Shown here one piece after another: positions 9,256 to 59,800 of a stretch of DNA of 64,000 nucleotides. A program made the translations under genes and the position numbers. Numbering within the stretch: the stretch's first letter is position 1; the number at the start of each line of letters is the position of its first letter. The stretch is from Raillietiella orientalis (taxonomy: Eukaryota): NCBI GenBank assembly GCA_036172245.1, contig JAYWIR010000022.1, positions 2,108,001 through 2,172,000 on the forward strand. Reading direction: 5' to 3'. The notes below the pieces were generated by a model, which worked only from the letters and a program-made list of their open reading frames with translations, was not told the origin of the DNA and made no database searches.

Positions 9256-9899
9256 TGAACTCGGAGCCCGGCAGCGAATTTCGGCGGCTTCTGTTCCATC
9301 CAGGAGACCGGGATCGTCGGTGGCCGAGAGAACAAGCATGGTGTCGGCCACGATGCTGTTCACTCCCGTATCCCCGGGTGCCGAAGCGGTCAGTTCCATG
9401 AATGAACGCCCGCGGTGCTTCCGCAACGAGGGGCACCTTCCTCCCGGGTCAGTGAGGCCGGGCGGGCAACCTCCAAGGGACCTACCGAAGCACCTGAACC
9501 CGAGGAAGGAGGGTCGCTTTCCATCGCGACCTGCCAGCTGGCGTCACGTCCTTCGCGCGAGAAACGTGGTTTTCTGCTCCTTGCCCTCGCAACAGGTTCC
9601 CAAGCTGCTGCGCCCCCGGCCTGCTTGGCTCGGAGCCGTCCGTTGCCACTGGAAACGGACGAACGGACGAGCAAGCAGACGTGCACGGTCTGGAAGGTGT
9701 AAGGACCGGCGTGCGTGCAGGGAGCTGCTCCGACCGGGTCGGCGGTCGTGGCGAGCGGGAGGGCAGACCTCGCCTACTGACCGCAGCTTCCACAACGTCT
9801 CCCAGCCTCTTTCTCCCTGAAACGATGGAGGGAGGGGCCTCGAAAATGAAAGTGCCGACGGTGTACCAAGCCATGATCGGGAAAAAAAGACAAAAACAA

Positions 9900-13100: not shown

Positions 13101-13699
13101 TCGGATAAAGGATCGCAGGAAGGGAGGGAGAGGCTAATTTTAGCGCCCCGAGTCCGGCTATGATTGTTTTCAGCCGAGCCGGAATACACGGGCGACCCCC
13201 TTTTCCCACCCCGCCTCCTCGACCAGTGAGAACTCTGGAGTGGAAGCGTACAAGGACCAGGAGAGAGGTAGCAGTCTGCCTAGGGCGCCGGTGACACTGA
13301 GGGTAGGCGCGGAGGCGAGCGCGCAGCCTGCCGAACGGCCTCCACGAAGTCGCCGGTCCGCGGGCCTCTGGGTCACTCCCCGACCTTGGCTGGGAGCTCT
13401 TGGACTTCCTGCCTGCGCCATCCCTTCCCGGGGAGCGGAGAAAAAACCTTGCGGCGGCCACGACCCCAGGGGCCTCAAGGCTCGCCCGCCCTGCTCCACG
13501 ATCTGCTCGCCTCCCTGCGTCGGCGCGCTCTTGCGCGTTCAACCGCCGGGGTTTCGGGGCATCGTCCCGACTGAGTGCCATTTGAGAAAGGACGGAGGAG
13601 GGGAAAAAAGGCGGGAAGCTCCCCTTTCCTTCTAGCCCATGTCATGTGACTTTGAAAAGAAGAAGTGGAAGGACAAGAAAAAACACACACATACACGAA

Positions 13700-13950
13700 A
13701 GAGGCGCGAAATACTGTGCAGTGCTCTCGTTGCTAGGCAACGCGCCGAGTCCTGGTTGCAGAGCTTCCTCCTGTTCCGAGAACCTCCGAACGGGATCCGG
13801 GTGCGTCTTTTGCGGCTGCATGGTTGGCCGGCCTTTCACTGGAAGCGCGTAACCTTCGAGGACAACGTTCCGAGCATGCCAATGGCGCTCCCGCGGCGGC
13901 AGATGGCACGCTGTGCACCTGGAGCTTCGATACGCATCTGACCGATGGAG
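13700..13950 (+). mobile_element. Possible Tc1-like transposase relic
   Basis: RLLRLHGWPAFHWKRVTFED resembles the Tc1 pattern RLxFAxxHxxWTxxxWxxVxFSDE. No terminal inverted repeats were found. Confidence 0.3.
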
Positions 13951-28267: not shown

Positions 28268-30081
28268 AAGGCGTATGCTGACGATCTTTTGCTCCTGCTG
28301 CCCATGTCCGCTCCGGCTTCGGCAGTCGAGGATTTCTTCGACTTGCTGAGCCACGGGACAGGACTACGGGTGAACAGGACGAAGTCGTCGCTGGTTGCGG
28401 TTGGTGCAACGTGGGCAGGACGACCTGATTGGATCCGCCTGGGGATCCCCACGGAGAGGTACCTGAAGTGCCTCGGCGTTCCGTTGGGGGACTTCTGCCA
28501 GTCAGAAGCCTGGTCAGGTCGTCTCCAAAAAGTGGAGTCAGCGATCGGCCCGTTCCTGGAAGGCAAGCTTCACTTGCCGGAACGGGCCGCGGTGTGGAAC
28601 GCGTTCGCGGCCCTTCTCCTTCGCTCCCTGCTTTTTGTTTGCCCCGTACCCCGTGAACTGAAAAAAAGAACAAAGGACCTCCTACGCATCGCCCTGTGGG
28701 GCGGCGGGAGCCCTTGTGTGCCTTTGAAGGATTTGTGCGCTCCACGTCGGGACGGAGGTCTTAGCGTCCTGACGATGGAGCGAATATAAACACAGCTGCG
28801 GTGGCGTACTGTAGCCATCGCAACGAAAATGTGGAACACCCCTTGGGGCGTTCCAGCCCGCCTTCTCGCCAGACGTGTGTCCGGGACTGAAGGACTCGCG
28901 TCTTTTCTTCTGTGCCTCGGCCGGAAAATAAGAAGATGCGGACTTCTCCTAGGACGCATGGCCACCCTGGCAAAGGAGAACGGGTGGATGGCCTGCAGCC
29001 CCGCCAACTCCAGCGCATGGCTAAAAGAAACAGTTAAAACGTGGGCAAAGTTGAAAGACATCAGTGGAGAATCCTGCAACCGCCTGCGCACCGGCATCTA
29101 CACCCGCTGCACGCTGCGGAACATGATCGTGTGTCCCGCCAGAGGCACTTGGGCGGAGACGAACCCACTGGCCACGGCGCTGCCCTTCCTACGAAGGGCG
29201 CTTCAAAACAGCCGGAAGCCGAGATGGCAAGTCTCCTGCAGGATAGCGGGCAAGGAGAAGGATCTAAGCGGGTGGACCATGAGGGAACTGGCAGACGCCG
29301 CAACCCCAAGCGTTCACCCGCATGGAATACGGAGATGGGGCGAGCTGCTTGGCATCCCGGCGGATGACCTAGAGTGGCCCCCGTTGTTCATAGACTCATC
29401 CACCCTCCCCCTCAAGTGGCAGGAAACGGCGCTGCTGCTGCTGCACTGGGGTCTTCCCTGCAACGCGCGCCGCCACCACTGGACGTTGGGGAACGTGGGA
29501 CAGAACTGTGCAGTGTGCGGGGAGAAGGAATCCCTCCCCCACCTGTTAGTGGACTGCGCTGCCCTCCGGCTCTTGTGGGAACGTTTTGCTACGACCCTCC
29601 CTATGCGGGTCGGCAGTACCCCCAGAGACGTTGTGAGACTCCTCTTCGTGCGAGACGCCCTGCCACCAGCCTCAACCCTGGCAGCGCTCTGCTGCCCCAA
29701 AGGGATTGTGGCTGCATGGAGCGCAGCCAACAGAGGAAGCAGCGATCGGGACCCCATCGTACACGCGGGTCGCCACCTGCGAATCGCGATCGGCTGCTTC
29801 CATCTGGGAGCTAGTACGAGGGACCTCGAAGGCATCCTGGAAAGGATGGTCTCTTCCTCCAGCGGGCTGTGATCCCTTCCCGGCCCTCCAAATAGTTTCT
29901 TTTTGTTTGTTTCATTTATTTTTCTTCTTGTTTTATCCTCTATCCCCTTCCTTCCGAGAGTCAAGCCGGCCTGTGAACCGGCTTCCTGGCAGGTCCTATG
30001 AACTATTGGCCGTAGCGGGGCCTAGTACCGCAGATGTACTGTTTTTTTTTTTTTTAATAAACGCCCCGGCGTGACCGGGTG
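28268..30081 (+). mobile_element. 5'-truncated L1/Tx1-like non-LTR retrotransposon (copy A): RT C-terminal half, zf-RVT-type zinc finger and 3' UTR
   Basis: AYADDLLLL (YADD at 28274-28285), GLRVNRTKS, YLKCLGVPL, LCAPRRDGGLSV and CAVCGEKESLPHLLVDC are all in one frame, interrupted by a single TAA at 28787-28789. The ORF ends at 29872, followed by a T-rich UTR, AATAAA and a terminal hairpin. Confidence 0.88.
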
Positions 30082-33680: not shown

Positions 33681-36570
33681 AAAGAAAACCCGAAAAAAAA
33701 AAAAAAAACTGGAAGGAAAAAACAGCGAAGGTAGAAGGAAAAGAAGAACCCAAGGATTTCCAGCATGCAGAGGTCAATACTGCTCGAGGCGGGGACGTGG
33801 CCAAGGTAATCGGCACGCAGCCAGTCCTGTAGCGTGGGGCCAGGAAGGGCAGGGGCCGCTGTCCGTCGAGGTCTGCGCGCATGGCGGAAAAGCAAAGGTT
33901 CTCCCCGCCGCGCCGGACTTCCGGGAGATGCAGGGAGGAAGGGCCTGATCCTGCGGGCGAGCGTCTCACGAGGAGTCGGAGAGGAGGTGAAGCAAATGAA
34001 TAGAGGAAGGGCAGAGTGCGGGGCGGTCGCCCGGCCTCATCCATTGTGGCTCCCAGGTCCCTCATGAACGGGAGAGGCGTCCTCCCTTTTCGTTAGGGTT
34101 ATAGAGTCCACCTCATCCCCGGCCACTGCCGACACGTCTCAACCGGGCAAGCTGCCTGCATAGCGACAACCGCCGCGGCCGTCTCAAAGGGCTAAAGGCA
34201 GCGCCCTCCGGCCATCCCGCCTCCTTGTGAGGCTTCCTCTCAGCGCAGGGTCACCATCCCACCGAGTGGGCCCACCCTCTCTGAGACGAGGTCTTTTCCT
34301 GCCAGGTGGCCACATCATCCCCAAAAAGGGTGCGAAGCTCTGGAAGGACTGACCTCCAGAGGTAGGCTAGTCCCGCGCGGACTGATTGGAAGATGCACGC
34401 CGAACCCGCCAAGGAGCTCCGTGCTGACGCCTGGCATCAGAACCTTGCAACGCGCGCACCTTCCCAGCGACCTTGCGAAAGGGTGTCGGAGAAAGGGCTA
34501 GCTGTGCGACGGCTGCTCTTGCCCTCCAGGGATTCCGGAAGGAAAATTTCAAGCAGTGATCGGAACAGATCGGAAACAACCGAAACGGCCCCCCTCCACG
34601 CCCCCCTTCCTTGGAAAAATTGACGGGATCAGCCAGGACGGCGTGTGAACGAGGGAACGTCCGAGATGCGCCATCCGAGGCAGTCGAGGAGCCGTCCACA
34701 GGATCATGCTTCGTGGCCGCTTGCCCTTCCCGAGCCCCCGACCCGCGGTGGTCTCCTCTGCCCCTGTAGCCGGTCTTCCCCGACATTTTTTTTTCCCCCG
34801 CACCGCTTTTCAGTTTCCCGCCTCGACGGCAGATGGCAGCTCTGCGGGCTGGACGGCCACGGCGGCGCGAAAGAAGAAAAAAGAAAACGAAGAGGTCGCC
34901 ACCTTTTTCGGCTAGGTGGGTCGCCCTGCCCCCCCCTCGCCAAATGGTGACAGAAGGGGAACGCGTCTATCGTTCCTGGTTTTCAGGAATGCGACTTGTC
35001 CTCCCGGGAGATCCAGAGGGAAGGAGCGATTAAGTCCGGACTGGTTGAGGAAGCGGGGAGAGGGGCAGACCCTAAGGAGGACCCCCTATTGCGCGAGATC
35101 AAGCTGCAGAAGCAGCAGCAACTCCTTACCAACCTCCGTGCGGCCGCTCCTTCCCGGCGAAGAGAAAGAGCCTGGAAGCTCACGGCTTCCTGGAAACCAC
35201 CCAGCAGCCGATCGCGGGAGAGCCCCTTCCAGAGGCACGGACGCGACCCTCCCCTAGCACGGGATGGGTGTGATGCCCGGCGACGGCTAAGGTGGCCCGC
35301 ACGCCAGCGAGACACGCCAGCCCTCTCTCTCTCGGAGGTGATAGCCACTGGCAACCGAGGACCCTCCTTCCATCCTTTCTCCACGAGCCAGTGAGGCGCT
35401 CCGTGAGGCCGTTTTGTAGCCGTGGGGGGCGCCGACGACTCCCTCTGCACTCACCACCCCTTGGACCCATGCCTGGCCCGTAGATCGGTGGTGGTGTTGG
35501 CTCGGGCACAGCCTCCGTCCATGAATCGATTCGCCCCCCTACCCCTCCTACGCCTACCAGCATCTTCCGGGCGGCACATCGTCTTCCGCGTTACGCCCCT
35601 CCGGACGAGGATATTACCCATCGCTGTACCTTTTCGCGAGGAAGATGCTGTAGGCAGGTAACACCGACGGAGACGAGGGGGCGTCTTTGATAGCCAGCTG
35701 GCCGCCAGAGCACACGTCTTCGTGTCGCCACCGCCCTCTTCCCCCCCTCGCCGTCGTCCGGAAGGGTGGATGGCCCCGTGGCAGTGAAAGGAGCAGGAGG
35801 CGCATGTGGGGGAGCCGCGTGGCGCGCGTAGAGGGGGAGCGGGAGGGCCGCCATTTCGTTCGTCCTTGCGCGCGCGACTCGCGGGATGCGGTGCCAGCAG
35901 CTCCGCTCCGGCCCTTGCGGGAGGGTGAGCTGACCTCGGAAGGTGCCCGCCCGCAGACGGAACGGCGGTGGCAACCAGACCGTCCAGGGGCACAAACCCC
36001 GGATGGCACCCTGCGCCCTCCAGCCATCTCCAGCGGTCGCTGGCGAGGTCCGCGCCGAGATCCAACAGCACTCCATGAAGGGCGTTGCGACGGAGATGCC
36101 CCTTCGGAACGCCTGTCAAGGGCACGCGCTGCCGCCCTTGGAAACCGATCGTGGGGTGTGGTGTGGGAATATGGATGAGGATCCTCCCTGGAATCCGTAC
36201 TCCAAAAGCTCGAGGGCAAAATGAGCGCTGCTCCGGCTTCTACGGGGGAGGAGGAGGAGGATGGCGTGGCACCCTATGGCAGCCGTGAACGTAGCTGGGA
36301 TGGGGTTAGGCAGGCTCCAGCGCCCGAGGCGCTCCGCTCCATCAGGCCTTACTTCCCAGCGCTGGGGAGGAACGTGCTTAGACCACTCGACCTCAGGAAA
36401 GAGCAGGGACGTTGTCCGGCCCGGGGCTCGCTCCCCAGGGTCAAGACTCGGGCGAAGCGCCATATTGGACTTTTGCCTGGTCGGAGATGCGGGTCGCTTG
36501 GCAGCCCTCCCGCTTGGCGGAGACACACGACAGCGCGCGCGCGGAGAGGGGCAGAATGAGGCACAGCAAC

Positions 36571-36744
36571 CTCCCCTTCTTCCTCCTCCCCTTCTTCCTC
36601 CTCCCCTTCTTCCTCCTCCCCTTCTTCCTCCTCCCCTTCTTCCTCCTCCCCTTCTTCCTCCTCCCCTTCTTCCTCCTCCCCTTCTTCCTCCTCCCCTTCT
36701 TCCTCCTCCCCTTCTTCCTCCTCCCCTTCTTCCTCCTCCCCTTC
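36571..36744. repeat. Perfect 15-bp tandem repeat (CTCCCCTTCTTCCTC), about 11.6 copies
   Basis: Directly visible; a pure polypyrimidine/polypurine tract. Confidence 0.97.
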
Positions 36745-37159
36745 CCCGGCTGGGGAGACGCGGCTATTCATCCTGAGCGCCAGCGCGCTGGGAGACGGCA
36801 GCTGCCTGGGCTGCTGGAGATCGCTGGGGATCGATCCCTGGGAAGGAGCTACGGGATCCATTTCGTTTGGTCCAGGTCAGCCCACCTCGATGAGGAGGAA
36901 GAGTCTCTCCCGTTACATATCTTCCCCGCCCTCCTCCCTCTGTCTCTCTCTACCTCCCTCTCTCCTCGGCAGACAGAACTCGCGCGAGTTTATGCAAGCC
37001 CTCATAGATGTCGCAGCTGGGCGGCCGAGCCACTGACTTTCGACGGGAGAGGTCCCGTCGAAAGTCAGGGACCTCTCCCATGAGCGAGAGGGAGAAAGAA
37101 ACCCCATCTTTCAGAAAGAAAGACCCTCATGCCTCTCGCTGGAAGGGGATGGATCTCGG

Positions 37160-40255: not shown

Positions 40256-43200
40256 TCAGCGGTATCCGGGGTAGCCTGGGTATTCGGGGTAGCCTTCGTA
40301 GCCTCCTCCATAAGTGGGGGGGGCAGGTCCGTCCGGGCCCTCGGTCGTGGTTTCGCCAGGGCTCGGTCTGGGAGCGGTTGTGTCCCACGCGGAGAAGTCC
40401 ATCTCGGGGATGTCGTCGGAGTCGCAGGGGATCACCGGGTTCCTAGAAAGAGGGAGGAGAGGCGCGGGAAGGACGGGAGGAAGGAGGACGGCGCAGTCCC
40501 CGCGCTGCCCTCGACGTCCCGAAGGAGGAGTCGGCGAGGGGGAGCCTCAAGGCAGCCACCGTCCCGCGATGTCTCCTCCTTGGCCCGCTGCGAACCTCAC
40601 CGCGTCTGCGAGCCTCCCGGCGAGAGGGAGCGCTCCCTTCTCCGGGAGGAAGGGCGGAGGCCCTCGCCCCTCACCTTTCCTGGTCGGACAGATACATGGG
40701 CCACGTGTAGACCTCGGCTTCCAGTTCGGAGTTGTCACACAGCAAGCGCGCCATCCTGGCCTTATTGAGCTCCTGGATCTGCTCTGAGGGAGAGGTGCGG
40801 GCGTGGAGCCGCCAGACTTCCCCCACCTCCCACTCCACCCCCATCCCCTGCCCCCGGAACACACTTACGGGGCGTGAAGGCGCTCTGATGCTGCGTGTTC
40901 TGGTACCAGAAGCGGTCTCCCGCCTTGAGGCTGCTGAACTGCTCGGCCACGATGTGCCCGAAGGTGGGGCCCAGCACCGCGCTGGGCACCTTGATCTCCG
41001 CCAGGCCCCCCGTGTACAGGTCGATATCGTCCGGCTGCCTGCGAGAGGAACGCGCGAGAGTGTGGAATGTGTGGGGGAGGGAGCCTCCGCCACTCCCGCC
41101 CCGTCCCCAGGGGTACTCACGAGTACAGCAAACGCAGGATCTTCAGGGTTGCGTTGGTGAAGACGGCCATCTTGGAGAGCTCCTTCCAGTCGTTAGAGTG
41201 GGCCAGGCGGAAGAGCCTTCTGGATGGGCAGGGAGGCGTGGGAAGGCGAGAAGGGTCCCAGAGAAGTGGGGAGGAGGGGGAAGGGGGGAATGATAGAGAG
41301 GTCGCAGGCACGCGCCAGGGACGGCAACAAGCGCCCCGTCATGTCATCCCTCGAATCCGCCTGGGATTGGAGACGGAAGGGTGGGCCTGGAGGGAGTGCA
41401 AGGACTCCTTGGTGTGCCATCCGGGCCGTCGGCTCACTGAGCGCTTGGCAGCGGGGCCTCCCTAACCGCCCAGCCCATCCCGGGAACCGCGGGGGGGCAG
41501 GAAGAGGAGGTGGATCGGCCGGATGGGACGACCCGCTCACTTCACGAGAGGTCTCCCAACTGCCGCAGCCGCCAGAGCTGGGTGCGGCACTCCCACTCCC
41601 TACCTGCCTGAAGGACGTTCCCTCTCACCCTTCCCCCTCCCTCAGGAAGGCTGCGATGTCCGTTCAGCATCCCTGAAGGACTGAGATCTTCCTGACTTCC
41701 CGGGAGGGGAGGAATTTCTTCCCCACCCCACTTGCCACGGTTCCCGGAGCGCCCCTCTCCGCCTCCCCTCCCTCCTCCAGCTGAGAAACGGTGCAGCGCC
41801 GCTTCCTGCTGATGCTGGGACCACCCATGGGAGGGGGGAACGCAGCCCTTCGGTCTGCCTGTGCCCAGACGAAGCGGGGATGGGGCCGCCGAAAGGAGGG
41901 GCCAGGAGGACAGCGCCATGAGCATTCAGCAGGCAACCAGAGCACCGATCTTGGGAGGGTCACTGCACTTCACGATGCGCTTCCTTTTTCTTCTCTACTC
42001 TCGTTCCCTGGGATGGTTCTTCCGTCCCTTCCGTCGCAGTGCCACGGGATGGAGCAGAACCACTGGGACAGTAGAGGGAGAGTGCAGGAGCTCTCCCTCC
42101 CCTTCCCTCCTCCCCGCAACAATAGAACCCGGTGCTACTGGCGGGAGTGCACATCCGCCTCTCGGAGGGATGAGGCTTCCCGAGGGACAGCCCGCAGCAG
42201 GCGGGCAGGCGGACGGGGGCTCTCCGCCGCGTCCCTGCGACGCGCGGTCGGCCGTTGCCAGCGGCTTCCCAGCCGCCACGGGGAGAAGCGGGGGATGCCT
42301 CGAAAGACCCCAGTGGGAAGGGCTGGAGGTAATGGGGGGTGCGATAGGTCACCTGTAATGCATGTATCCCGGGAGGCCCACGTCCCTCCCCCTCTGTATG
42401 TCGATGGACACGAGGTCAAGGCCAAACTCCTGCTTGGGGTTCTCGAAGAGGTGGTTCCTCAGCTGGAAAGCAGAGAGCGGCTCCTGGGACGCAAAGGAGG
42501 GAGGCACCTGACCTCCAGTGTGACCAATTCGTCGAACTCCGAGGAGGCAGTCGTGTAGAGCCCCCTGAGGAACTCTTCGAAGGCCTCCGGGGATTGTAGG
42601 AAGAAGGGCATCAGGAAGGTAGAGCCCAGGCGGTGGGCGGCTGCAACGAAGTGCCCCCCGTTAGGAGAGAGCAGCCCTTCCTCCCCCCCCCTCGCACACT
42701 CTAGGTCCCCGTCCCCGCACCCAGGCACGCCAGCCGCCGGGGTCAACGCGCCCGAGAGGGAGCATCATGCCAGCCGGTCGAGCGGCAGGAGGAAGGGGTA
42801 CGCACGGCGTGACCTCTCTAGCCAGCGGGCCCCACCCTTCGCCCCCTCGGCCGAGGCCGGTGGTGTGATCTCTCGGAAGCGGACCGAGGGACCCATCCTG
42901 GAGACCCTCCTTCCCTGCGGAGGGAGCCGAGAGGGTCCGGCCCTCCCGTTCCCTGGACGCTGAGAGGAACGCGGCGTCCCGAGCGTCTGTGCGTGTGAAG
43001 ACGCACCCGGCCACCGACCCGAGAGGGGCTCCGGACCTCGGCGGGCCACGACCTCGCACTCCACCCCCTCCTCCCTCCTCCAGATGGCCGACCCCTTCCC
43101 TCGAGCACGTTCGCTGGTCTCCCTCGGTAGCTTCCACGGCTCGTTCTGCATCCCGCGCGGCGAGCGTCCTGGGATCGAGCTGCCGGAGCGGCTCGGGTCC

Positions 43201-46200
43201 ACCCCTGACCCGGAAGAGGGCTTCCTTTCCCTCACCCGGAGGATGGGCCGGACTAGGTGTCCTGTGGAGGGTCGGACCGCGGGCCGCCCTTGCCTCCCCG
43301 GGCAGTTGCCTCCCCCGCCTCGCGTAGCGCATCTACACGGCTGCTCTCTGCCAGCGCGTCCTCGAAGCTCTGTCGATGGGCGCCGAGACCCCGGAAGGAC
43401 CAGGAGCGCGGGGGGATAGAGGAGGGGTGAACCCACGAGACCAGCATCTTGAGACCTGAGCCCGCTCAGGGGTTCCCCCGAAAATTTTCGTTTTCCCTCG
43501 ACCGAAAAGTGGAGCGACTCGGGGAGAAGGACGACGGGATGAGGCAGGGCAGTCGGGGAAGAGTGGTTGTCGCCCCGGACGAGGTGTGCGCCTGCGCCTT
43601 CGAGGTCCCGAGAAGCGGGAGAGGGCGCCTCCGAGCTCTCTCGAGGGGAGCATCGCGGGGGGAGGTGGAAAGGGCCGGTGCCGGAGAGCGCCAGTAGACA
43701 GTCGGGGGAGGGGAATCCGCCCAAGGAGGTGACCTCGGGGGGCGCCTCCGACCCTCAGGATCTGGTCTCCTTTCCCCCTACCAGGATCGAGACGGGAATC
43801 CGGGAGAAGAAAGGAAAATCAGCCTCTACTTCGGGAAGGGGTCGCAGCCTCTGCAGCCGCCCGCTGCTGAGCCTCCGCCCCTGCGGTCTCTCCAGCCGGT
43901 CGAGCAAGGAGGAAGGGCGAGGTTCTCCGCGCGCCCCATTTCGCCTCCGATCGACGGCTCTGCTGGCACTGCCCGGTCAGCCTCATCGCTCGCGTTCCCA
44001 AGTGCCGCCCGGAGAGACCCTTGGATCCTGGTCAGCATGCTTGGATCGAAGGGTCGAGCCCTCTGGCAGGTTCAGGGGTCAAGTCCAGAGCCGCCGCCGG
44101 TGGCATCAGCAGCGGCAGTCCCCGGCGTGCTGCGGAGCGGAACCGCCAAGAAGACCACGAGAAGGTCATCGCCATCCTCACCAGACGGCGCTTTCTCGCG
44201 GCTACCGGGAAAACAAGCCTCCCTTGTTTCCGCTGGAAACAAGGGGGGCTGGCGAGCTCGCTTCGCTTCCTCCGCCTTTCCTCCGCCGACAGCGGCGGAG
44301 CGGCGTCACGCAGCCAGACCGCGGGAATTTGCCGCCCCCCTCATCCAGCATCTTCCCTTTTGCTTTCCTAACCTGCGTATGGGCGCCCCCTCTCGCCAGA
44401 GGGGAAAGGAGGGTCTCCTGCTGTGTAGGATGGAGAAAGATCGCGCACGTCACCTAAGCGCAGGAGGGAAGAAATTTTTTTTTCGAGGAGCGATTGCACG
44501 AAGAGAAGGAAGGGAGAGGGGGAAGCGGCGCCTCTCTGAATCGGATGCGGGGGGCAGGGGGAAACAGAGCGCTCGAGGGAGAAGGTTCGTGTCCGGAGTG
44601 CGCGCGCTCAGCGCCGGCTAGCGGCCAAAGAGTTTCGCCCGAGCGCTTCGCCGCCAGACGGCAGCGCGCCGACGCATCCCCCCTTACCTATGGGTATGCG
44701 CTCCTTGTCCACCCTGTCCAGCATGGGTGGCACGACAGAGTGGCCAAACCTGAAGGCCGCGGCGGCGAACTCGATCGAGCTCGTTGGGTCGACTTTGAAG
44801 TCGTACTTGTAGTTCTAAACGCCCCCCCGCCCGCGAGATGCTCCAGGCGCACCCCCGACCCTCTTACCTTGTCCAAGACCAGGTTGTAGAAATCCATAAA
44901 GTCCACCCCCAGCAGCGCCGGCAGGAACTCGTTGTAGGTGACCACTTGCATCTCGGCGGCCACGATCCTGCGGGCCGTCTGCACCGGGAGCCCCGAAGGG
45001 AGAGAGATGAGTCAGCAGCAGACCACGGAGACCCCACCGCCGCCCCCATCACCCCTCTCCTGTGGGTGCGCGACAAACCTGGAACAGAGTCTCGTCGTCC
45101 CACTCTGGGTTCACCCTCTCCAGCTCCTCGGCGACCCGGTTGTGCTCGCTGAGCATCAGGATGACCATCTGCGCTATGCCGATGTTCATGTTGGCCCGGA
45201 CGTCCCCTGAGGTGGCAGACTCGGCACTGCCGCACCCCACGACCGCGATGCCCCCTTCCTCACCTGTCTGGAAGCAGAAGACCTCCTTCTTCATCCTCAG
45301 GCAGAAGGAGTCGGGACCGTCCTTCTTGAGAGGCGGAAGCGACTCCGTGTCCAGCAGCATGCGGCCTCCCTGGTTCTCCCTCAGGGTCCTAAGGCAGCGA
45401 ACAGAACGCGGGTACGCCCTCCGTGAGTTCTCCTCCCGGCCGCGGGAGGTGCGCCGCCACACATGCGCGAGAAGCGCGTGCAGGTGGGAGGGTTGGAACA
45501 GGGGAGTGCCGAGGCGGGGAGGGCAACCCCCGACATCCCGGGGAAGCCGCGGGCGGAGCTGGACCGTGGTGGTGATGGTGAGGTGGAGGAAGGAGTGCGC
45601 ACACTCCCGGGGTCCGACGGGCACGGTACGCAGATCCTTCGGTGCCTGCGGTGCACGCCAAGGCGGCGGCGAACAGGCCGCGACCCTCCCAGAGGGCCGG
45701 TCGCCCCATCCCGCTTAAACCCGACCACCCCCTTTGCTCATGTGGAGGGGACGCAGCCCCCCTCTTTCCCTTGCCTCGCCTTGGGTCGGCGCCACCCGGC
45801 CGGCGTTTCCGTCCCACTTCCCTCAAGGGCGTCTGAGACCCTTTACGACCCCGGGATTTATCAGATGGAGAGAGCGGAGGCTGCCGCCCCTTCCCGCCTA
45901 GCGCAGCCACTTCCCGGAGGGGCCCGTCAAGGCCCAAACATCCGGGGCAGGCCGCCTCGCCCCTCTTCCCCTCGGGGGCTGGCAACTCACCTCAATAAAT
46001 CCGGATCGACCCCGTAAATGGAGCTGCCGTCGATGGTGGAGGTCACCAGGTTGAACCCATTCCTTTGCCCTGGGGCGACGGGAACCCTTTTACGACCCGA
46101 CCAGCCGCGACCTCGCGTACCCAGCCTGCAGGACTCCCTCAGCCCGGGGTTTATCCTGAAGTTGTCGAAGCAGGTGACCCCGTAGGGGGAGTAGAAAGAG

Positions 46201-49200
46201 TCGTTGAAGAGCACCTGCACCCTCATACAGTGCTGAGGTGGGCGCTCGCCCGCTGCGTGGTCGCCGCAGCACTTACCGACGCCCCATCTGGCGTAGTCTG
46301 TTGCGGAAGTGTGAAGAGGGATCCGAGCGCCCACCGCTCCCGCCTTACCCAGGTCGATGGCCGCGAAGGTGGTCTCCAAGTAAAGCAGGTGGCCCCAGTA
46401 GGCAAACACCTTGCTGAGCGCCGCCGCCGCGTAGTCGGCGGTGCTTCCGTGCACGCGGTTGGACACCACGCGCTCCATCGGCAGCCCCCGCTGCCGGGGG
46501 GACTGTAGATCGTCGTCGTAGGCGGCCGGCAGCAGCCTGATGAGCAGACGCGCGCGCGCGCGTGGGAGGAGGGGGAAGTAGGACCGTTTCTGCCGGACGG
46601 CCCGGCGGACTGCGGGTCGCACCACGGGACGCCAGGGGACGCGCCCTGGAGTTTCCGCAAGCACCGGAAACCCTGCCCGAACGCACGCTCTCCACCACTT
46701 CGCGTGAACCCCAGGCAGCCCTGACGCTCGCCTTCCCTCCCACGTCTCCTCCGCCCGGAAACAGCCCGCGCGTGGCCGTGCCGGTGGTATTCGGGGAGGA
46801 AGGACACATGATCGGCCATCACTAGTGCAAGAGCCCCTCCTTTCCCTGCCCCCCTTGCCGCTGTCAGGAAGCGGAGCCATGCGACGGAAACGGAAAGACG
46901 GTGGCGCCGTCGAACGCAGTTGGCGGAGAGTACAGCAGCTGCCGTCAGGGAGAGGGACGGGGCACACGGCAACAAGGGGAGCGTGCGCCCACGTCATCCC
47001 TTCAGAAGTCGCCTGCGGACGGGTGGCAAGCAGCGGGTTCGCGCATTTTCCGCGAGCGTTTCCTCAGGGGGCAATGGGCGGGCGCCAAGCTCCGGGCTGG
47101 AGCCACAAAAACCGAAGCACCGGCAGGCCGGTCGCTCTCCCCGGTGGCGTGTCTCCTAAGGCGCCACAGGTGTCCGCTCGGAGGTGCCGCGCTCGAGGCC
47201 CTCCGTTCGCACGCAGCCCCGCTCTTCCCGGGGACTCAAGTAGCCTTCGGGGATCGTCGCAGAAGACCCCAGCGACCTCCCCTGACCAGCACCCGGAGTC
47301 TGGGCTGGTCAGGCATCCCTCTTTCCGAAAGACTCCCGGCGTCGGGCGGGGGGTTAGGGGGCGAGCTCACCAGAAGCTTGTCGCGCTCGCCTTGCCGCGA
47401 CCCCCCCAGAGTCGCACGGCCTTAAGACTACAAAAAGGGGTGAGGGGGACAGGGTGACTGCGCCTCATCAGACCTCGTTCACGTGGCCTTGAACCGCTGA
47501 ACTCCTGTGGCTTCCGCCGTACGAGGATCCCTCTCAGAGCGCGCCGCCCCTCCCCTCTCCTTCTGCACGACGGGAACCCCAGGAGCGAGGGAGGATTCAG
47601 AACCACCACCTCGGGCGGCGGCAGAGGAGGCTCTCAGGGGGCGCGGACAAACGGAGAGGCCTCTGGAGGGTGCTTGGTCTCGCTGCCCGGACTCTTCGGC
47701 TCCTGAACAAAGGACGTGCTGCCTCTCCCCTTCCTCCTGCCCACCGGGCCACGCCGGTGCACGGAGCGGGAGGAGGCTCTCGAAGGGAATGGAAGTACGG
47801 TGCCCCGCGCGGAGTCTGGGTCAGAAATGGGGGGCTCCTGAAAGACGCGGGAGGGGGTCCTCTCGGAAAAGGGAGCCTTGGCTTCATAGCGCCCCAAGGG
47901 GTGGTCCCTCAACACGAAGAAAGGAGAGCCCCGGGAGACTCAAGGGGCGTGTCGTGGCAGGGGCGAAGCCCCCGACTTCCCCCATGTTCTCCCTCCGGAG
48001 CCCTGGGATCTGATCGAACTTTCAGGTTCGTGGAGCCGCACGCTACCTACCCCACGAAAGCGCATGCTTCTTCCTTGTGCTCGACGGATGCAGCAGGGAA
48101 TCTGATATTTGCGGAGGGGGCGCGTCGAGGGACTTCTCGTTCCGCAGTTGTGGGTCCGCTATTCCGCAACCCTCCTCCCGAGACCCTCTCTTCCTCGCTT
48201 CCCACGCGAGAGCCCCCAGCAAATCAACGGGCCGAGCTCTGCGAGAACCAAGCGGGGAGGGGGGTTGGAGCTTCTGCCGCCGGCCGCGAGATGTCTCTGC
48301 TTTCCATCTCTGTCTTTCCCGTCTGGCGGCGGCGTCCGAGAGCACGACTCCGCGAACACCGAAAAGAGAGACCGCGTTCGAGACAGGAGACCGAGGAAAA
48401 GGTGGAAGCTCTGAGGCGTGCGGGAGACGCACGCATCCCGTGGTGTGGACAAAGTCCGGCGGCGTGGAGTCTTCGCGATCCCTCAGGAGAGCGGAGGAGT
48501 AGGAAAGGCGCCACGACGCCGAGAGAGGGAAGGCAAGGAAGGCCCGTGACCCTCGGGGCCCCGGGAAAGCGACGTCACCGGACCCCATGGGGCCTCGGGC
48601 ACCTGAGCTTCCCTTTCCTCACTCCCGTAAGCCTCTGACCCCGTGCTCCGAGCCGAAATGCCAGAAAACGCAGCACGCGAAGACCTTCGCAAGGGCCATC
48701 GCCTCCCTCAAAGCCGGGATGTCCGGCCATGCAGAGTCTCAGCGGCTGGAAGACACTCTGTCGGGCTGCTTCGTTCCAGATGGAGAAGCAATTGGTCTCT
48801 GAGCTGAGCGGGAGCACTCCCTCAGGTAGGGGCCGACAGCTCTCCCCCTCACGAAGCTCACGACGGCGAGGTCCACAGGCTAGCAGGACCGGAGCGGCCC
48901 CATGCCTGCGCGCTGCCCCAAACTCCGTCCCGATCGAGCTGTTTCCTTCTCTCCTCCCGCTCCTCCCGAGCGGAGGGGACGTGTCCCTTCCCTTCCTTCG
49001 GGAAGGACGGGTGGATACTGTCCCCGGGCTCACCCTCCACCGCCGCCGGGCGACGCGGCGCGGGCCGGAACGCACCTCCTGTACTGGGCCATGGCCGCTC
49101 CGAAGATCAGGTGCTCGACATTGTTGCAGATGCCGTCAATGTCCTGGGGTGCGTCCTCGTTGCAGGTCAACTTCCAGAAGATAGAAGGGCAGAGCTTCTG

Positions 49201-50973
49201 GACGGGGGTGTTGGCGAGGTCCAGCATCGGCAGCTTGAGGGCCAAGTGCTCCGCGGTCAGCTGGAACCTGGGGGGAGAGGGTGTGGCGCCATCGCCGTTG
49301 GGTCTCTTCCTCCTCCCCCCCCCTTCCACCCGCGCTCACTGCTCCTTCAGCAGCTCCGTGGTCTTCAGCAGGACGGCGGCCAGCCTGGAGACACTCTCGA
49401 CGTCCGGTGGATCCTTCAGCGGTCTCGACTTGAAGTCTGGAACGGGGACGAAGGAGAATCGGGGCTCCAGCAGGTCCAACCGTGCCGCGAGCGGGCTCGG
49501 GAGCTCCTCCTGTGGTCGGTGCTCCCGGGGGGAGAAGAGGAGGCGGAGACAGCATGCCTGGCTTCGGCGAACAGCTCGCGTCCGTGGCGCTATCCCCGGC
49601 GCGAGCGGCGCTCGCACCGGTACGCGGGTGCTCATGGCGCGCAGAGGGAGCTCAGCGGCTTAGTTACACCGCTCGCCAGCAGAAAGCGCTCACGTCGCAT
49701 TGCACCCACCCGTTGCTCGTCGTCCCACCCCCTCCGGCGCGATCGGAGCAACGCGCCGAGCAATGCAAGGCCCGGGGAGGGAGGGAGGAGCTCCTCCTCC
49801 TTCCCCTCCCGCGAGTGGGGCTGTTGCACCCCGCCATACCTTCGTCCAAGAAGAGCACCGCCTTCTGGAAACTCTTGGTGATGTCTCCACGGGTGATGCA
49901 CGCCCTGGAAAGAGAGGGGGAGGGTGGTTACTCCCGGAACCAGGAAAGGGTGGGAGGAGAGGGAGAGAGGAGGCAGTAGGTCTGCACCAGGATGTCCGAG
50001 GAGGGCGAGGGCGAGCTGTGGCTGCTTCCCAGTTGGCGGAGCTCGGGGGGGGAGAGGGAAGGGGCCTCACTTCCATCTCCCCCGCCACGCCACTTCCGAT
50101 GGTTAGTGAGGAAGGCAGAACACCACCGCCATGGAGGGCGCGGCTATCCAAGATGGCGGCGGTGGGACATCCTCGAGCCTTCCCCCGGCAACGGCACCTC
50201 CCAGTCGTCCCCTCACAAGCTGGGAAAGGGCGCGGTTCCCTTGGCAGCCCCTGCGTGCGGGGAGCGGGGGGCACGCCTGCGGCTACTTACTTGGACGGCA
50301 CCTCTGGAAACGACAACAGGCACTCTTCGGGCTTTCCGTGACCTGCAAAGGGAATCGATGTCTTCGTCGAGAGTCCTCGGAGGGGCCGCGGTCCCTCGGT
50401 TCACCCGCCCCGCCCCGTGGCTCACCTCCTTCGCCTCCCAGAAATTCCCCAGTCCCGTGTTGCGTGCCGCTGCCGCCAGTCGGGGTCGGCTGAATGGTCG
50501 GCGAGTATCCCCCCGAGAACGGGGGCGGCTTGGCGTACCCCTCGTAGCCCCCGTAGGGCTTCCCGCCGCCACCGGGGTAGTAGCCTCCCCCGTGGGCAGA
50601 GGAGCCGTAGCTCTCCGACTGGTACTGGGGGGCGCCATGCTCGTAGTCCTGCCAGGAGAAGGGCGGGATCTCCTCGTCGGGCAGCGAGTAGCCCACCAGG
50701 ACGTCTTCTCCGTCGAGCCTGGGGCCCGAGGTGAGGGACGGTGCTCTCCTCCCGTGCAACCTCCCCCGGCTCACATCCCGTACTCCTCGAAGCCGCCGTG
50801 CATCCTCTGTCTCGTGGGCGACGGCGACGACTGCGACGGCTTGGAGGTGCCCTTGCCGCCTTTGCCGCCCGCGGACTCCCCCGTGGGCGGGGTGGAGGCC
50901 TTCCGGGAGACCTGCGTCGGCGGGTTCTCCAGCTGGTGGCACAGCTGGGCGACGAGCACGCAGAAGGAGAGCT
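40256..50973 (-). CDS. Animal haem peroxidase (peroxidase-cyclooxygenase superfamily; chorion peroxidase/peroxinectin-like) protein with a degenerate distal site; first exon not located
   Basis: 19 GT-AG-bounded, phase-compatible exons: 50973-50775, 50718-50426, 50342-50291, 49904-49840, 49436-49340, 49267-49076, 46536-46349, 46297-46121, 46069-45991, 45388-45264, 45206-45079, 44978-44868, 44814-44688, 42640-42513, 42462-42353, 41219-41121, 41038-40869, 40783-40675, 40442-40256 (about 878 codons). Motifs: DIDGICNN, RRLLPAAYDD, VTSTIDGSSIYG, CFQTGDVRAN, EHNRVA..NPEWDDETLFQTARRIV, TYNEFLPALLG, EFAAAAFRFGHS, GLDLVSIDIQRGRD, DIDLYTGGLAE, LKAGDRFWY, ARLLCDN. A hydrophobic signal-peptide-like stretch (LSFCVLVAQLCHQ) lies at the 5' end. 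Confidence 0.9.
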
Positions 50974-53900
50974 CTGGAAAAAAGAGGGCGCCGGCATCGG
51001 CGCCGAGGTGTCCGGGACGGACGCGGGGAGGCACGGCTGTCGCGAGCGCGGGACGCGTCCCCTTCAGGCGCGCGGCGTCCGTTGCCCGGGACAACCTGCA
51101 GGAGGGGCGCACACGCGGTGGGAGCACCGCGCAGGGCGGGGAAGCCAGAGGTCAGGGAGAGGACACTGGGAGACCGACGGGGAGGGAACTCCTCCAGTAA
51201 CCTCCTTCGGTCGACCAGCTCGCGGGCACCCGCGGCTACCTCTTCAGAGACCTCGGCGACGAGAGGTCCGCGGCCGCAAACGCGGTCCGTGGGCGGCATG
51301 ACAACCGGCGGCGAGGTTCCTGCCTCCGTCCGCGTGCGGGGATCGGGTGAAGGGTCTGGACCAAGATTCGGCTAGCATCGAGGGGTGCCCAGGCGATCCT
51401 GGACCAAAGGACACTGACTCCTCCCTCACGCGCCCTGGCGGTTCCCAAGGGATAGGAAGGAGAGGGGGGGGAGGAAGAAGTCGAGGGGACAGCTCTGGAG
51501 GGCGCGCGCGTGCGGCGTTGCCATGGAGCGCCCCGCGGGGACGGCGGACGGAGATGCCGGAAGCGGAGCCGGTCGCCGTCTCTGGAGATCTTCCCGGGCT
51601 CCCCCTCGCGAAAGAAGTGGAGAGGAATTCGTTGTCCCCCACCCTCACCCCTCCCTGGAGTTTCTCCGACGCAGCGGCGAACCCCGTGGCACTCGCGCGC
51701 CGCTTCCCCTTTTCCTCCCTTTGTTCTCCGCCTGCCATCATCTCCCACCAGTCCGGGGACCTGCGTCCACCGCCCTCGCGCGCGACCACCTCGGCGCAGA
51801 GTCAGCTTAGGGGCGCAGCGCTAGCAGAGTGCGCCATTTTACTTACTCCACGAAAAGAGCGCCATTCCTCCTCAGGGCGAGCGCGTTCCGGGCCGGAGAA
51901 CGACTGAGGTCGCAAGCGCTTCCTCCCGCGGGAAGACTCCCGAAGGCACCGTCAGCGGAAAAACCTCCGGAGCAAGCAGGCGAGCGCGCCCTCCTCCCCA
52001 TTGCCACGGAGACGCAAGCAGGAGGAGACGGGAGGGAGAGGAGGGAACAGGCGAAGAGGCGCTGCACCCATACCGATCGGGAGGCGAGGACGGGAGCGGG
52101 ACATCAGGAAGGGAAGAGAGGGCAGAGGGACGTCCTCTTCGGGAGAGCAGAGGGGATGGGCCGAGCCGACCACAGCGGCGCCAAGGGCCGATTACCGCTT
52201 TGAATGCCGGAAAAGCGGCAGGAGGAAATGGGGAACGGGAGGCAGGGGATAGCCTCAGGGCCAGGAACCACAGAGGTGGGACGGGGATGAATTAGGGGGT
52301 GCTGTTCTCTGTCGACGCGTGGATACGGTCCGTGAGCCTCCCCGAGCCCAGCTCTTCTGCGCCGGGCTGACTTCCCGGCTTTTCCCCCCAACCACGCGAA
52401 AAAAGGGGGGAGGATTGGCGCGTCCTCCCCTTCCCTGGAGTGGGAAGCGCGTGAGCGGGAAGCAGCCCGGGAGTCTGCATCCCGAGAAGGAGGCCGGTCC
52501 GCCGGAGGTCGTGTCCGTGGTAACGAGCTCCCGTCAGACCGTGGCGTCCTCCCGGAAGGTCTGCCGGAACTCGCAGAAGAGAGCCTCCTGGGACCCTTTC
52601 CATTTCTGAGGAGACCAACGTTCTTTCCCACAGCCCTATGACTGGGCCACGGTGCCCTGCTACGTGACAGCTTCCTACGGGGGCCCCGACCGGGACCGGA
52701 CGCAGCAGGAGTGGGGACGGCATCCACTTCCCACGTCCGCGGATCCCTGGGTCCCTAGAAAGAGAGAACAGTCACGACTATCCTTCTCGCGTTCCTCCCC
52801 AGCTTCCCTCTAAGAGTGAGTGAGGAGCAGGAGAGGATACCCAGCGTTCTCCCTCCCGGCGGGAGATGGCAGCACGGAGGTGTTGGAGTTCGCGACGAGA
52901 GGTGGCAGCACATCGGGAACCCAGTCCGACGCGCTCGGTGCAAGCATCCGTTGGGGGAAGGCCGACTCATCTGCTGTATTCTTTTCCATCTCTCCGTACC
53001 TTTGCCACCCCTACCACCGTTCTTTCCTCTCGGACTGATATTGGATTTTTTTTCAGGCGCTCCTTCCTTCCCTGCCAGACTGGAGGAAGGGTGGGGGAAG
53101 AGCCGCTTCTTTTTCCTCCCTTTCTCGGCTCGAACTCTCCTTAATCGAAAACCTCGTATGGTTAAAGGGGAATGGGCGGGCGGTCCCCCGGATTTCTGGA
53201 GGACCGAGATCGATCAAGCAGGAAGCAATCAGAGGAAGACGAGCAGTTCAGTATTTCCCCTCCTCTCTAGCGGAGCCTGCTGGCTCTCGCAGCACCGCCT
53301 CGCGGAAGGATCCCCCGAGAGCTCTGTTTCTCCTCCCTCCTCCGAGATGGAACCGTGAGCGCTCCTTCGAGAAAGCGAGTGGGAGGGGAAGAAGAGCCGT
53401 CTTGTGGGCTGAACCCATCGCCGTCCTGCAGATTTGCTGCATCTCGCTGCCAGGTGATTACAGAATCCTTCCTCAATCCCATCCTGCCTCGTGACTCCTG
53501 CTGTGGGGGATGACGTCACTAATGGCTGAACGCACCTATTCATTAGTGTTGTGCAAAGGATGAAGGCGATTACCGGAAAACACGCAAGCTAATTGCGATG
53601 TTCCTCGCGAGGCCCCTGGGCGGTCTCCATGCGGCAACTGCATGCCTATGTTGGATGCAGAACCCCCTTCCCCGCGCCGGAGACGTCTTCTCGCGTCATC
53701 CAGCGGGACGACTGGGAAGCGCGCGGTCATGCCGGGAGAGAACGTGTGCTTTCGGGTCGCTAACAGGAAACGCCTAAGGATCCCTTTCTTTCGCCCCCCA
53801 ATCTCACAAGCGCTCGCAAGTCCCATCGCGCACGTCATCCTTCCCGCCCACAGGAGAGCCTTGGGCCGTGCCATCTGAGATCACCTCAAGCGCCCCCCGA

Positions 53901-56842: not shown

Positions 56843-59800
56843 TCACGCAGTCTGTTTCATGATTTCGGCGATGCAGAACTTGGACAGGCTGTCAGTGTCC
56901 GGGGGGCGTTCGGAGCTCTCCTCGCACTTTCCGCCGCCGCCACCTCCTTCCTTCGCAGCTTCCGCCACCGGCGGACTGTCTCCCGGCTGGGGATCGCGCG
57001 CCGACGACGACGACGCGCAGTCCGCCTCGCCCTGGAATGTCGAATCGCTTGATGTGGGGGACGCGGGGAAGGGCCGGAATAATGCTGAGCGCTGCTGAGG
57101 AGCTGTTGTCGGAACCGATGAAAGAGAAGACAGGCGCTTTTCGCCTTTCTCCCTCGCGGCCGCTGGTCCCTGATCTTCGTGCTGCCCGAAAGGTGCAGCG
57201 GAGGATTTCTTGAAGTCTTCTTGAAACGCGAGCGATTCGCTGTCGCTGCAGAACATCTCCTCCTCGGTGAGGTCCTCGACGTTTATTTCGTTGATCTCCG
57301 CCTCGCACAGGTCCTCCTCGTACTCTTTGGAACAGTCTTCTTCGGCCCCCTCGCATTTACTAGAGGATCCTCCATTGTGGGTGAGGCTATGACGTCGTAG
57401 ATCACAGTTTCTCCGAAAGACCTTTTTACAAGCATGGCACGAATAGGGTTTAATGTTGGTATGCGTAAGGAGGTGGGTCTTTAAATTAGATCTTTGGTTG
57501 AAAGAACGACCACATGTAGGGCACTTGTGAGGCGATTCTTCCATGTGTAGTATTTTATGCACCGCCAGAGTTCGCGACTGGCAAAATCCTTTTCCACATT
57601 CTGTGCACTTGAATGGCTTCTCCTTCGAGTGGATGAATCTGAAAGCAGAATCCTCGTGAAAAAAAAAAAAAACCATCAATTCGGCTGCAAAAACGGAATT
57701 TTCGAAATGTCATTCGAGAGAGGAGGAGAAAAGGAAGAAAAACAAAAAAAAAAAAAAAAAAAAGATCAGCAGAAGCGGCCGTTCATCACGGGAACTAAAA
57801 GCCGGTGGATGGTAGGAGTTTGCGCAACTCGAAAAGCGATCCTTTGATCAAGGGGAGGAATTTTACAATCAACAAGAAGAATTTTAATTTGAAGTTTTTC
57901 GGAAAGGCAGTTCGGACCTTTGGGAGGAGTCAGCGTTTCTTCTCTTTTTGTGCTGCGTGTGTCACTCTGGAAGTCTATGGAATTATGGGACCTGGGGCAG
58001 AGATCCGGACGGAAGACAAAAACGAAAACGGAGCACTATCGGCTGATGGTCTCCGGCGGTGACGCGGTGGCTTCGGCCTCAGCCGGGGCGAAGCAATCGC
58101 GTCAAAAACGGAGGAGAAGAAAAAATGGAAGATTCGCGCGCTCGTGTGCTTCGCTCGTGGTGGTGGGCACGAAACGCACCACCCCGTGCCCGAACACCGG
58201 GGTCGGCTTGGCCGGTAACCCCCGCAGGCCAGGAGACCGCGGGTGGAACGCGAATGTCCTGGGCGGGCGCCGTAGACGGGCACGGAAGCTGCCTGGGCCT
58301 CCTGGTACGTCCCACACGGATTCCACACCTCGGAAGAGAATGGGGCGAACCTCCCCCCCTTTTCCTCCCCCCCTCCCCACTCGCATTTGTTTCAATTTGT
58401 TTTTGCTGGGGATTGAGGCGGTTTCGATTTGGTAATAAACAAATTAAAATTCAATCCGAGGTTTCGAACGCGCTCAATTTTAGTTAATGAATGCAGCGTC
58501 TTCCGCCCTTCCTTTTTTCTTCCCCCTTCTCCTTTCTTCTGTTGGTGATTCGAAAAGACTGTCGGAAACGAAAGCGTTATTTGCTTTGATGCTAAGCAGG
58601 TATCCGTTCGAAAAAATTGATCTCTCGATTTCGAGACCAATTAGCCGGCCATCAAACCGACTGACCAGTGACTAATTCTTCTGACACGAATCCAAACGCT
58701 CACAGCAGTCGCGGAGACTTCTGAAGGATCCGACCGCGCCGCTAAATCTCCCTCGGTCCTGTGGCTTTCGGACGCTGTGGCCCCGCCGAGAAAGACGGAA
58801 GAACGGAAGACTCCCGGTTAATCCGAAGCAGCAGGATGGGAGGAGGGAAACCGTCGCTCGGAGCTCGGTGGAGTCTCCTTGGCAGCAGCGTCCGGGATCC
58901 GACGGAACGGAACCGCCGCCGCACCGGCCCGTGGCTACCGTTGCTTTCAGGAGCGCACAAAACTTGGCGGCGCTGAAAGATGGCGGCGATATTTCATGAC
59001 CGATCCTCGCCCTACATGCTTCTTACACGCTTTGGACCCTGGCGGAAAGCACTGGCAGAAGACACCTCGCTCGAGACCTTCCACACCCATGGCTTTTCAT
59101 CAAAATGCATCGGGAAAAAACTGATGCACCGCAAAAAAAAAAAAAAAAAAAAAACTTTCCGACCGGCGGAAAAATCACGAGCGCTTAGAACTTGAGAATC
59201 GCTGTTCGAGAGCGTCTCCGCATCCATGGAAACCGAAAAATGACTCAATTAAGCGCTGGGTTTTTGCTAAGGACAAAAAAAAAAAAAAAAAAAAAGGAAA
59301 ATTCCGAAGGAGATCATTCCTAGTGTTGCAAGCTGCACCTTTGCAAAAAAAAAAAAAAAAAATTCCTCTTCCAAGAACGCTCTTTCGTTATTTGTTGGTC
59401 TCATTTCGCGTTCATTTCCAGCGCTTTGGGCATGTTTAGAAATCTGGACTTTGGCACGCTCCTCTGCCTCTGCCCGCGATTAAGAGAGGCTGGACCATGC
59501 TGTCGGTTTGCATGTAAGCTGGCGGCAAAGGACTGGACTACCGTACGAGACTTCGCGTTACGTGGGCCGAGAGCGGTCGCGCGCCCGACCCCGGTGCGAC
59601 CCCGCCGCAAAGCGCCCGTTTCCGCCGGAACGCGCGCGTGTTCTCCCGGCTCGCACGCTGCAGCCATCACGGGAGCCGGACGGGCTACGCGACGCGTCTC
59701 CTGCCCAAGGAAAACACCAGCGCGAAACACAGGCACACTCGCCCAGCCGGTGACGTCGAGAGAAGAGGAAGACGCGCGCGTGCGCGCGAAGAAGGCGGAC

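Follow-up and report, generated by a model that had tools for sequence, protein, structure and literature searches.

We analysed a stretch of 64,000 nucleotides of Raillietiella orientalis DNA (contig JAYWIR010000022.1, positions 2,108,001 to 2,172,000; the whole of this stretch is called the window below), which carries on its minus strand, at 51865..40256, one intact gene from the family of animal haem peroxidases with a heavily substituted active site. Sorted by role, none of the five residues that carry the chemistry or the covalent links (Gln91, Asp94, His95, Glu242 and Asn421 in myeloperoxidase numbering) is kept, against all four of the residues that we take to hold the haem (Arg499, Arg597, His600 and Arg684, the equivalents of Arg239, Arg333, His336 and Arg424). 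The gene is probably still in use, and the reading towards which we lean is that its product is a pseudo-peroxidase, with the fold kept for a non-catalytic job. Catalytically degenerate homologues of animal haem peroxidases are already known, and the window gene adds a case.

The gene and its active site

The gene model, whose junctions were fixed by script, has 20 coding exons and 19 introns, all of the latter GT-AG and with phases consistent throughout, and its coding sequence of 2655 nt (884 codons) contains a sole stop at 40258-40256. The initial annotation had described 19 exons that splice in frame without a stop. The gene is indeed intact, and 19 is the number of exons in our model minus the tentative exon 1, but the range it cited, 42353-46536, spans the outer borders of exons 16 and 8 and thus holds nine exons (exons 8-16). 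Content of guanine plus cytosine (GC) in the DNA around the gene is 58-69% per 2 kb. At codon positions 1/2/3, GC is 0.585/0.435/0.869 over the whole coding sequence, 0.62/0.55/0.87 in exons 1-4 (0.872 at the third position) and 0.58/0.40/0.87 in exons 5-20, versus 0.677 in the introns, and this excess at third positions (87% versus 68%) supports genuine coding sequence.

Myeloperoxidase numbering was transferred through two chained alignments, namely a phmmer alignment of the springtail protein P0007 to 5mfa_A and 6bmt_A (in 6bmt_A, the distal Gln, Asp and His are at chain positions 257, 260 and 261) and a MAFFT alignment of the model protein, P0007 and nine others, which is free of gaps around every motif and has its flanks in frame. 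All motifs quoted in the initial annotation lie on the minus strand where they had been placed, and its assignments, by which Gln91, Asp94, His95, Glu242 and Asn421 are replaced and Arg239, His336 and the Ca-binding loop are kept, are borne out by both alignments. In the distal motif WGHLLYLE (46397-46374, model residues 353-360), G-H-L-L-Y-L-E (46394-46374) stands where -G-Q-x-x-D-H-D- is expected and Gly alone is kept: Gln91 has become His355, Asp94 Tyr358, His95 Leu359, and the Ca-binding Asp96 Glu360. The signature -R-x-x-E- reads R-A-N-M in GDVRANM, with Arg239 kept as Arg499 (45198-45196), Glu242 replaced by Met502 (45189-45187, the end of the motif) and Met243 aligned with Asn503. The proximal His336 is kept as His600 (44742-44740) in FRFGHS (44754-44737), and its partner, where Asn421 is usual, is Asp681 (42402-42400) within LDLVSIDIQRGRDV (42420-42379). 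The Ca-binding loop TSTIDGS (46043-46023) is preserved, and its T437, D441 and S443 align with the loop of myeloperoxidase. Arg597 and Arg684 correspond to R333 and R424, presumably the propionate-binding arginines.

The new His355 and the former distal His share a helix, with His355 at i-4. The codon at the His95 position is unlike any His codon at all three positions, which suggests that the catalytic loss is not very recent. Moreover, the substitutions are spread over four exons (8, 12, 16 and, for a cysteine pair described below, 17/18), and changes in several exons together with a codon altered at three positions make one assembly slip insufficient as an explanation.

As described in PMC4420034, the distal signature comprises the catalytic His, the ester-forming Asp, the Ca-binding Asp and the halide-binding Gln, the second signature comprises the catalytic Arg and the second ester-forming Glu, and the proximal His is hydrogen-bonded to Asn; these signatures are given there as superfamily-wide, except in cyclooxygenases and dual oxidases. 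According to PMC3533774, all haem peroxidases depend on a distal His-Arg pair to cleave H2O2 heterolytically. Thus, with the H2O2-splitting distal His changed to Leu, classical heterolytic cleavage of H2O2 is not expected, and with Asp94 changed to Tyr and Glu242 to Met, no ester links to the haem would be formed. The change to His of the Gln that serves halide and hydrogen bonding may be a further part of the lost peroxidase cycle.

A different exon that restores QxxDH, a possibility raised in the initial annotation, was not found in the window: the pattern [WF]G[QE]xx[DE]H[DE] is absent from all six frames of the 64 kb in a regular-expression scan, and outside the model exons tblastn with seven peroxidases gave nothing better than E 0.067. 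Weak tblastn matches (3510-3575, 48046-48162 and elsewhere) were considered as a second peroxidase gene or an alternative exon and were rejected, with E of at least 0.05, mixed strands and no flanking similarity; those in the first 14 kb are few, lie on both strands and have dissimilar flanks.

Relatives and other degenerate domains

As query for the protein searches we used the open reading frame (ORF) of exons 8-10, which has 182 residues with two short in-frame introns read through. Searched exhaustively with HMMER, 1.84 billion representative proteins yielded 13 matches at E<=0.001, of which none reached E<=1e-10. The five that were inspected are three full-length peroxidases with 34-41% identity, P0007 among them, a fragment and an unrelated repeat protein. 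Hence, the protein itself and relatives above ~50% identity are not in that collection. With the same ORF, a word-index search of longer proteins gave no relative among 7660 candidates, and phmmer against solved structures gave nothing at E<=0.01 and, when loosened, solely a lactoperoxidase at E 0.39. The 103-residue ORF of exons 11-12 gave one match, P0133, which is 33% identical overall. A first metagenome scan returned no relative, and a second returned one locus, L001, of another subfamily; an orthologue was found neither in the searched protein collection nor in the metagenome scans.

The closest relatives found are arthropod orthologues of Curly Su (CG5873). In blastp, a 16-exon model matches proteins of this type end-to-end with 36-39% identity over ~640-700 residues (E 1e-148 to 1e-161). 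From 8000 scored candidates, 2938 relatives of P0007 reached E<=0.001, and the best 120 of these were collected; among them are ‘CG5873’ from Drosophila busckii and ‘Cysu’ from an ant, Curly Su orthologues often being auto-named ‘chorion peroxidase’ or ‘peroxidase’, and one match is named ‘HPX5 family’. Within these best-listed 120, [WF]GQxxDHD is present in 119, the exception being named ‘partial’, and the RxxE pattern is likewise present in 119. Thus, the already characterised subfamily with the same substitutions that the initial annotation had envisaged was not found, 119 of the 120 closest listed relatives being canonical. The literature searches returned no paper on the substitution pattern, and they leave its presence or absence in print undecided.

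The best-supported split of an IQ-TREE tree with 26 domains (98/100) places the model on the side of Curly Su, yet apart from the members found in myriapods, crustaceans and hexapods, and in a FastTree tree with two more sequences the best-supported split (0.99) again puts it on that side; both trees were made without named MPO, Pxd, Pxt, Irc, cardinal or Duox references. Assignment to the Curly Su lineage is thus provisional. According to PMC5225594, Curly Su orthologues are >70% identical among invertebrates, and neither this high conservation nor the canonical active site that marks the group is seen in the window protein. Like Curly Su, it has a single peroxidase domain behind a signal-like N-terminus (a signal peptide in Curly Su) and is colinear with it from a Cys-rich N-terminal region to a C-terminal Cys; it differs in its 36-39% identity, the loss of the Gln, Asp, His, Glu and Asn discussed above, the loss of one Cys pair, and its Tyr/Gly/Pro-rich ends.

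For measuring conservation versus decay, we used as panel those 79 of the best-listed 120, hexapod orthologues, that have a length of 640-1000 and a strict WGQxxDHD; 38 were excluded by length and three (P0090, P0097, P0114) by the first motif letter. The panel has 282 columns with an identity of at least 97%, and the model retains 148 of these (52%; 146 of 280 in a second alignment), compared with 58-60% in canonical peroxidases of other subfamilies (P0005, P0009) and 87% in a crustacean orthologue. This retention indicates the overall distance of a separate subfamily and not that of a rotting copy. Moreover, 11 of the 13 panel-invariant Cys are kept. The two lost positions, Phe700 and His758, align with C440 and C497 of myeloperoxidase, which we take to form one disulphide; if so, the Cys pair was lost together. 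By these sequence comparisons, the fold looks maintained and not decaying.

Domain searches agree with the family assignment. Pfam An_peroxidase (PF03098) was searched on eight single-exon or single-ORF pieces, six of which score above the cut-off (33-70 bits versus 25), one below it (16.7) and one not at all, and with a profile made from the 79 orthologues the model reaches 491.6 bits (positions 5-570). On the exon pieces scanned, no other Pfam family was matched, nor was the LRR/Ig/vWC architecture of peroxidasins seen.

Degenerate peroxidase domains are known and recurrent, in PXDNL, DUOX and the nematode short peroxidasins, and three further cases were met here. As reported in PMC8533639, PXDNL is inactive owing to the loss of the Gln and Asp equivalents, and the changes Gln>Trp and Asp>Glu alone abolish peroxidasin activity. 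In PMC3533774, equivalents of Gln91, Asp94 or Glu242 are described as absent from the short peroxidasins of nematodes and from the Pxd2 group of vertebrates, and Ile, Asp or Asn is given there for Pxd2/PXDNL at the Asn421 position. The Asp421 precedent, and the activity lost by the Gln and Asp changes alone, make the substitutions of the window protein less surprising. It shares with PXDNL/Pxd2 the replaced distal Gln and Asp (PMC8533639), and its Asp at the Asn421 position is one of the residues found at this variable site in that group (PMC3533774). PXDNL is different in that the distal His is still present, in its additional LRR, Ig and vWC domains and in its membership of another subfamily, whereas the window protein has neither a distal His nor any other Pfam domain. 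With the nematode short peroxidasins, here compared by description alone, it shares the single domain without equivalents of Gln91, Asp94 and Glu242, whereas the distal His motif is given as conserved in peroxidasins (PMC3533774). The peroxidase domain of DUOX has lost the proximal His and activity, as described in PMC4420034, and is fused to an NADPH oxidase, whereas the window protein keeps the proximal His and stands alone. Peroxinectin has an invertebrate peroxidase fold and acts in cell adhesion via an integrin-binding motif (PMC4420034), and the window protein has one RGD; unlike it, peroxinectins are described as active enzymes with KGD.

The three further cases came from the searches. 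Five chelicerate proteins of ~1500 residues from spiders and a scorpion (P0123, P0127, P0129, P0131, P0132) have two tandem peroxidase domains, of which the first is degenerate, with FGEF[VI][YF]HD as distal motif (Gln91>Glu, Asp94>Tyr/Phe) and neither the proximal His nor Arg333 kept; the second domain is canonical. The metagenome locus L001 holds the same degenerate and canonical pair side by side (6400-10700 and 13300-15050 of that locus), each domain clustering in the tree with the corresponding one of the chelicerates; hence, this dead domain is old and conserved. Two domains are also described for LsPxtl-1 of the salmon louse (PMC10579435). The third case, P0133 (733 residues, on a transcript-sized contig of 2706 nt), is Ala/Arg/Leu-rich, has WTQFVEHD, GDVRANT, LKFGLS and Ala at the Asn421 position, and forms a long branch of its own. 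None of the three has the substitution pattern of the window protein. The degenerate domain of chelicerates and L001 is like it in an aromatic residue at the Asp94 position and a replaced Gln91, and unlike it in keeping the distal His, losing the proximal His and Arg333, having a canonical domain fused or adjacent, and lying on the opposite side of the tree.

Exons and surroundings

All exons are on the minus strand. The tentative exon 1 (51847..51865) holds the ATG (51865-51863) and the first six codons of a signal-peptide-like N-terminus, and its GTAAGT donor has the phase that fits exon 2 (50775..50973), in which the remaining signal-like part and a Ser/Pro/Gly/Lys-rich region lie between AG/GT borders in phase and in open frame; mean hydropathy exceeds 2 over residues 7-18. 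Exon 3 (50426..50718) is Tyr/Gly/Pro-rich and of low complexity. GGYEGY-type stretches of this kind are similar at both ends of the protein (50426-50718 and 40259-40330), and due to this likeness exon 3 was first taken for the last exon of an upstream tandem paralogue; this was rejected, as it splices in phase here and no peroxidase exons lie upstream. Beyond exon 4 (50291..50342), an in-frame TAA sits within the GTAAGT donor. The junction AA/GTAAGT at 50291 gives the phase required by exon 5 and fits without an extra 53-nt exon at ~50250-50198, which was dropped. Residues 21-187 contain 21% Gly, 13% Pro and 11 Tyr, and the last 49 residues contain six Tyr. None of the five pieces from the low-complexity N- and C-terminal exons, exons 2, 3 and 20 among them, matches any Pfam family.

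The region colinear with Curly Su orthologues begins, by blastp against the panel, in exon 5 (49840..49904) and includes exon 6 (49340..49436). An RGD lies in exon 5 at residues 193-195 (49891-49883), just ahead of the peroxidase domain, where Curly Su orthologues differ; one such tripeptide in 884 residues is about what chance would give and says nothing of function. Exon 7 (49076..49267) forms the Cys-rich N-terminal edge of the peroxidase domain (...DGICNN...), with a tblastn match to P0044 at E 3e-9 and the one Pfam score below the cut-off. The domain continues with exon 8 (46349..46536), the distal-helix exon with WGHLLYLE, exon 9 (46121..46297), exon 10 (45991..46069) with the Ca-binding loop, exon 11 (45264..45388), exon 12 (45079..45206) with GDVRANM (Pfam 49.5 bits), exon 13 (44868..44978; 35.7 bits) and exon 14 (44688..44814; 33.2 bits), in which FRFGHS and Arg597 lie. 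Exon 15 (42513..42640) alone has no Pfam match, and its borders, phase and tblastn support it. Asp681 and the kept Arg684 are in exon 16 (42353..42462; 44.6 bits). Exon 17 (41121..41219) contains Phe700 at one panel-invariant Cys position, and exon 18 (40869..41038; ...DDIDLYTGG...GDRFWY...; 69.6 bits) contains His758 at the partner position. Exon 19 (40675..40783) follows, and exon 20 (40256..40442) holds the domain end, the Tyr/Gly/Pro-rich tail and the stop TGA.

Introns 7 and 14, of 2.5 and 2.0 kb, are long. Introns 8, 9 and 11 (46298-46348, 46070-46120 and 45207-45263) are 51, 51 and 57 nt, lengths divisible by three, and have no in-frame stop, such that their retention would add 17-19 residues each without truncation; the ORF 45987-47063 is continuous across exons 8-10.

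Directly upstream, also on the minus strand, is a C2H2 zinc-finger gene, with Pfam zf-C2H2 matches on exons 56846-57709 and 60560-60823 and five fingers in all, which we take to resemble the odd-skipped/Osr family. Downstream, a Pfam scan of the 150 ORFs of at least 120 residues in 1-37.8 kb gave solely one weak zf-RVT match (23.4 bits, below the cut-off), in a 360-codon ORF on the plus strand (28790-29869) that is probably a remnant of a long interspersed nuclear element. A long tandem repeat lies at 36400-36770, and its frames give GGRRG/EEEEG/KKGRR on one strand and PPPLL/SSSSP/FFLLP on the other.

A peroxidase fold probably without its chemistry

The reading that we favour, with somewhat better than even confidence, is that of a pseudo-peroxidase. 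The gene would encode a secreted protein of 884 residues, with the signal-like N-terminus, a Tyr/Gly/Pro-rich stretch, one peroxidase domain and a short Tyr/Gly/Pro-rich tail, and may descend from the lineage of Curly Su, the arthropod cuticle cross-linking peroxidase. Its most likely job would be that of an extracellular matrix or cuticle component, or of a binding partner. In Drosophila, Cysu and Duox stabilise the wing, and the authors of PMC4654585 propose that Cysu helps to crosslink wing molecules; from such family biology alone, the Tyr-rich ends could be a cross-linking substrate for an active peroxidase/Duox pair. The degenerate domains long kept in chelicerates and in L001 give a precedent for a maintained dead domain.

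Several observations weigh against this reading. Stops are scarce in GC-rich DNA: the other five frames of the coding sequence hold 23, 6, 3, 29 and 27, so that the numbers in two of them are as low as 6 and 3, and non-coding frames of the window are rich in ORFs of 200-400 codons, which makes the open frame weaker evidence than usual. Exons 1-4 carry a coding signature like that of exons 5-20 without homology support, and the first coding exon, of 19 nt, is our guess, made from an initial ATG, the GTAAGT donor after it, a fitting phase and hydrophobic first residues. We infer maintenance of the gene from two things only, its intactness and its codon pattern. The terminal branch has 2.7 changes per site where the median is 0.15 (18x), which also fits relaxed constraint, and the tree program warns on long branches, so placement beside Curly Su is unsure. 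Lastly, His600, Arg499, Arg597 and Arg684, all presumed to hold the haem, are kept, whereas the other three dead domains met here have lost the proximal His; such a pattern favours continued haem binding, for which a pure scaffold would have no use.

This last point leads to the strongest of the other explanations, considerably less probable than the pseudo-peroxidase, by which the product has remained a haem protein whose chemistry has changed or whose role is to bind a ligand. Haem b might in that unlikely case be bound non-covalently, held by His600 (hydrogen-bonded to Asp681) and the kept Arg499, Arg597 and Arg684. Just as tentatively, Leu359, Tyr358 and Met502 might form a hydrophobic distal pocket, with His355 one helical turn away. 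Possible roles would be those of a haem carrier or store, a sensor, a binder of gas or another small ligand, or a slow oxidase or peroxidase acting via His355 or Tyr358. The division of roles, none of five against four of four in a protein that retains 52% of panel-invariant columns overall, argues for it, as do the proximal His, lost in chelicerate domain 1, P0133 and L001, and the position of His355 at i-4 of the former distal His. However, these numbers are small (four and five sites), and the roles of R333 and R424 are presumed. The account in PMC3533774 describes no haem peroxidase without the distal His-Arg pair, and the Asp at the Asn421 position is also found in the inactive Pxd2/PXDNL group it covers.

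It is rather improbable that the gene has recently been silenced or is unexpressed, i.e. that it is a unitary pseudogene still too young for its frame to have been hit. The very long branch, the lost catalytic set and the rarity of stops at this composition would fit such a history; against it, 20 exons remain in phase with all 38 splice dinucleotides intact, there is no frameshift over ~650 aligned residues despite 61-64% differing positions, and strong codon-position periodicity persists. The joint loss of both Cys of the presumed disulphide and the His95 codon changed at all three positions are also at odds with it. An artefact, either an assembly error or a wrong choice of exon 8, is highly improbable: nothing positive speaks for it except that the long introns 7 and 14 could conceal exons, and neither the motif scan nor tblastn outside the exons revealed a canonical alternative, while the substitutions lie in four different exons with motif flanks that align in frame.

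Whether as a pseudo-peroxidase or as a haem protein, the window gene has the cleanest split met here, with every chemistry residue gone and every presumed haem-holding residue kept. The jobs of dead relatives such as PXDNL and the DUOX ectodomain are mostly obscure, and the three further dead-domain cases bear on how often the haem peroxidase family yields them. If haem is still bound, the gene would mark a route from a peroxidase to a haem or ligand binder, and chemistry at His355 or Tyr358 would be new to the superfamily, in a lineage without close relatives in public protein collections; if it is not, the protein would be one more matrix pseudo-enzyme. The gene is thus a natural test case for what the peroxidase fold does without making oxidants.

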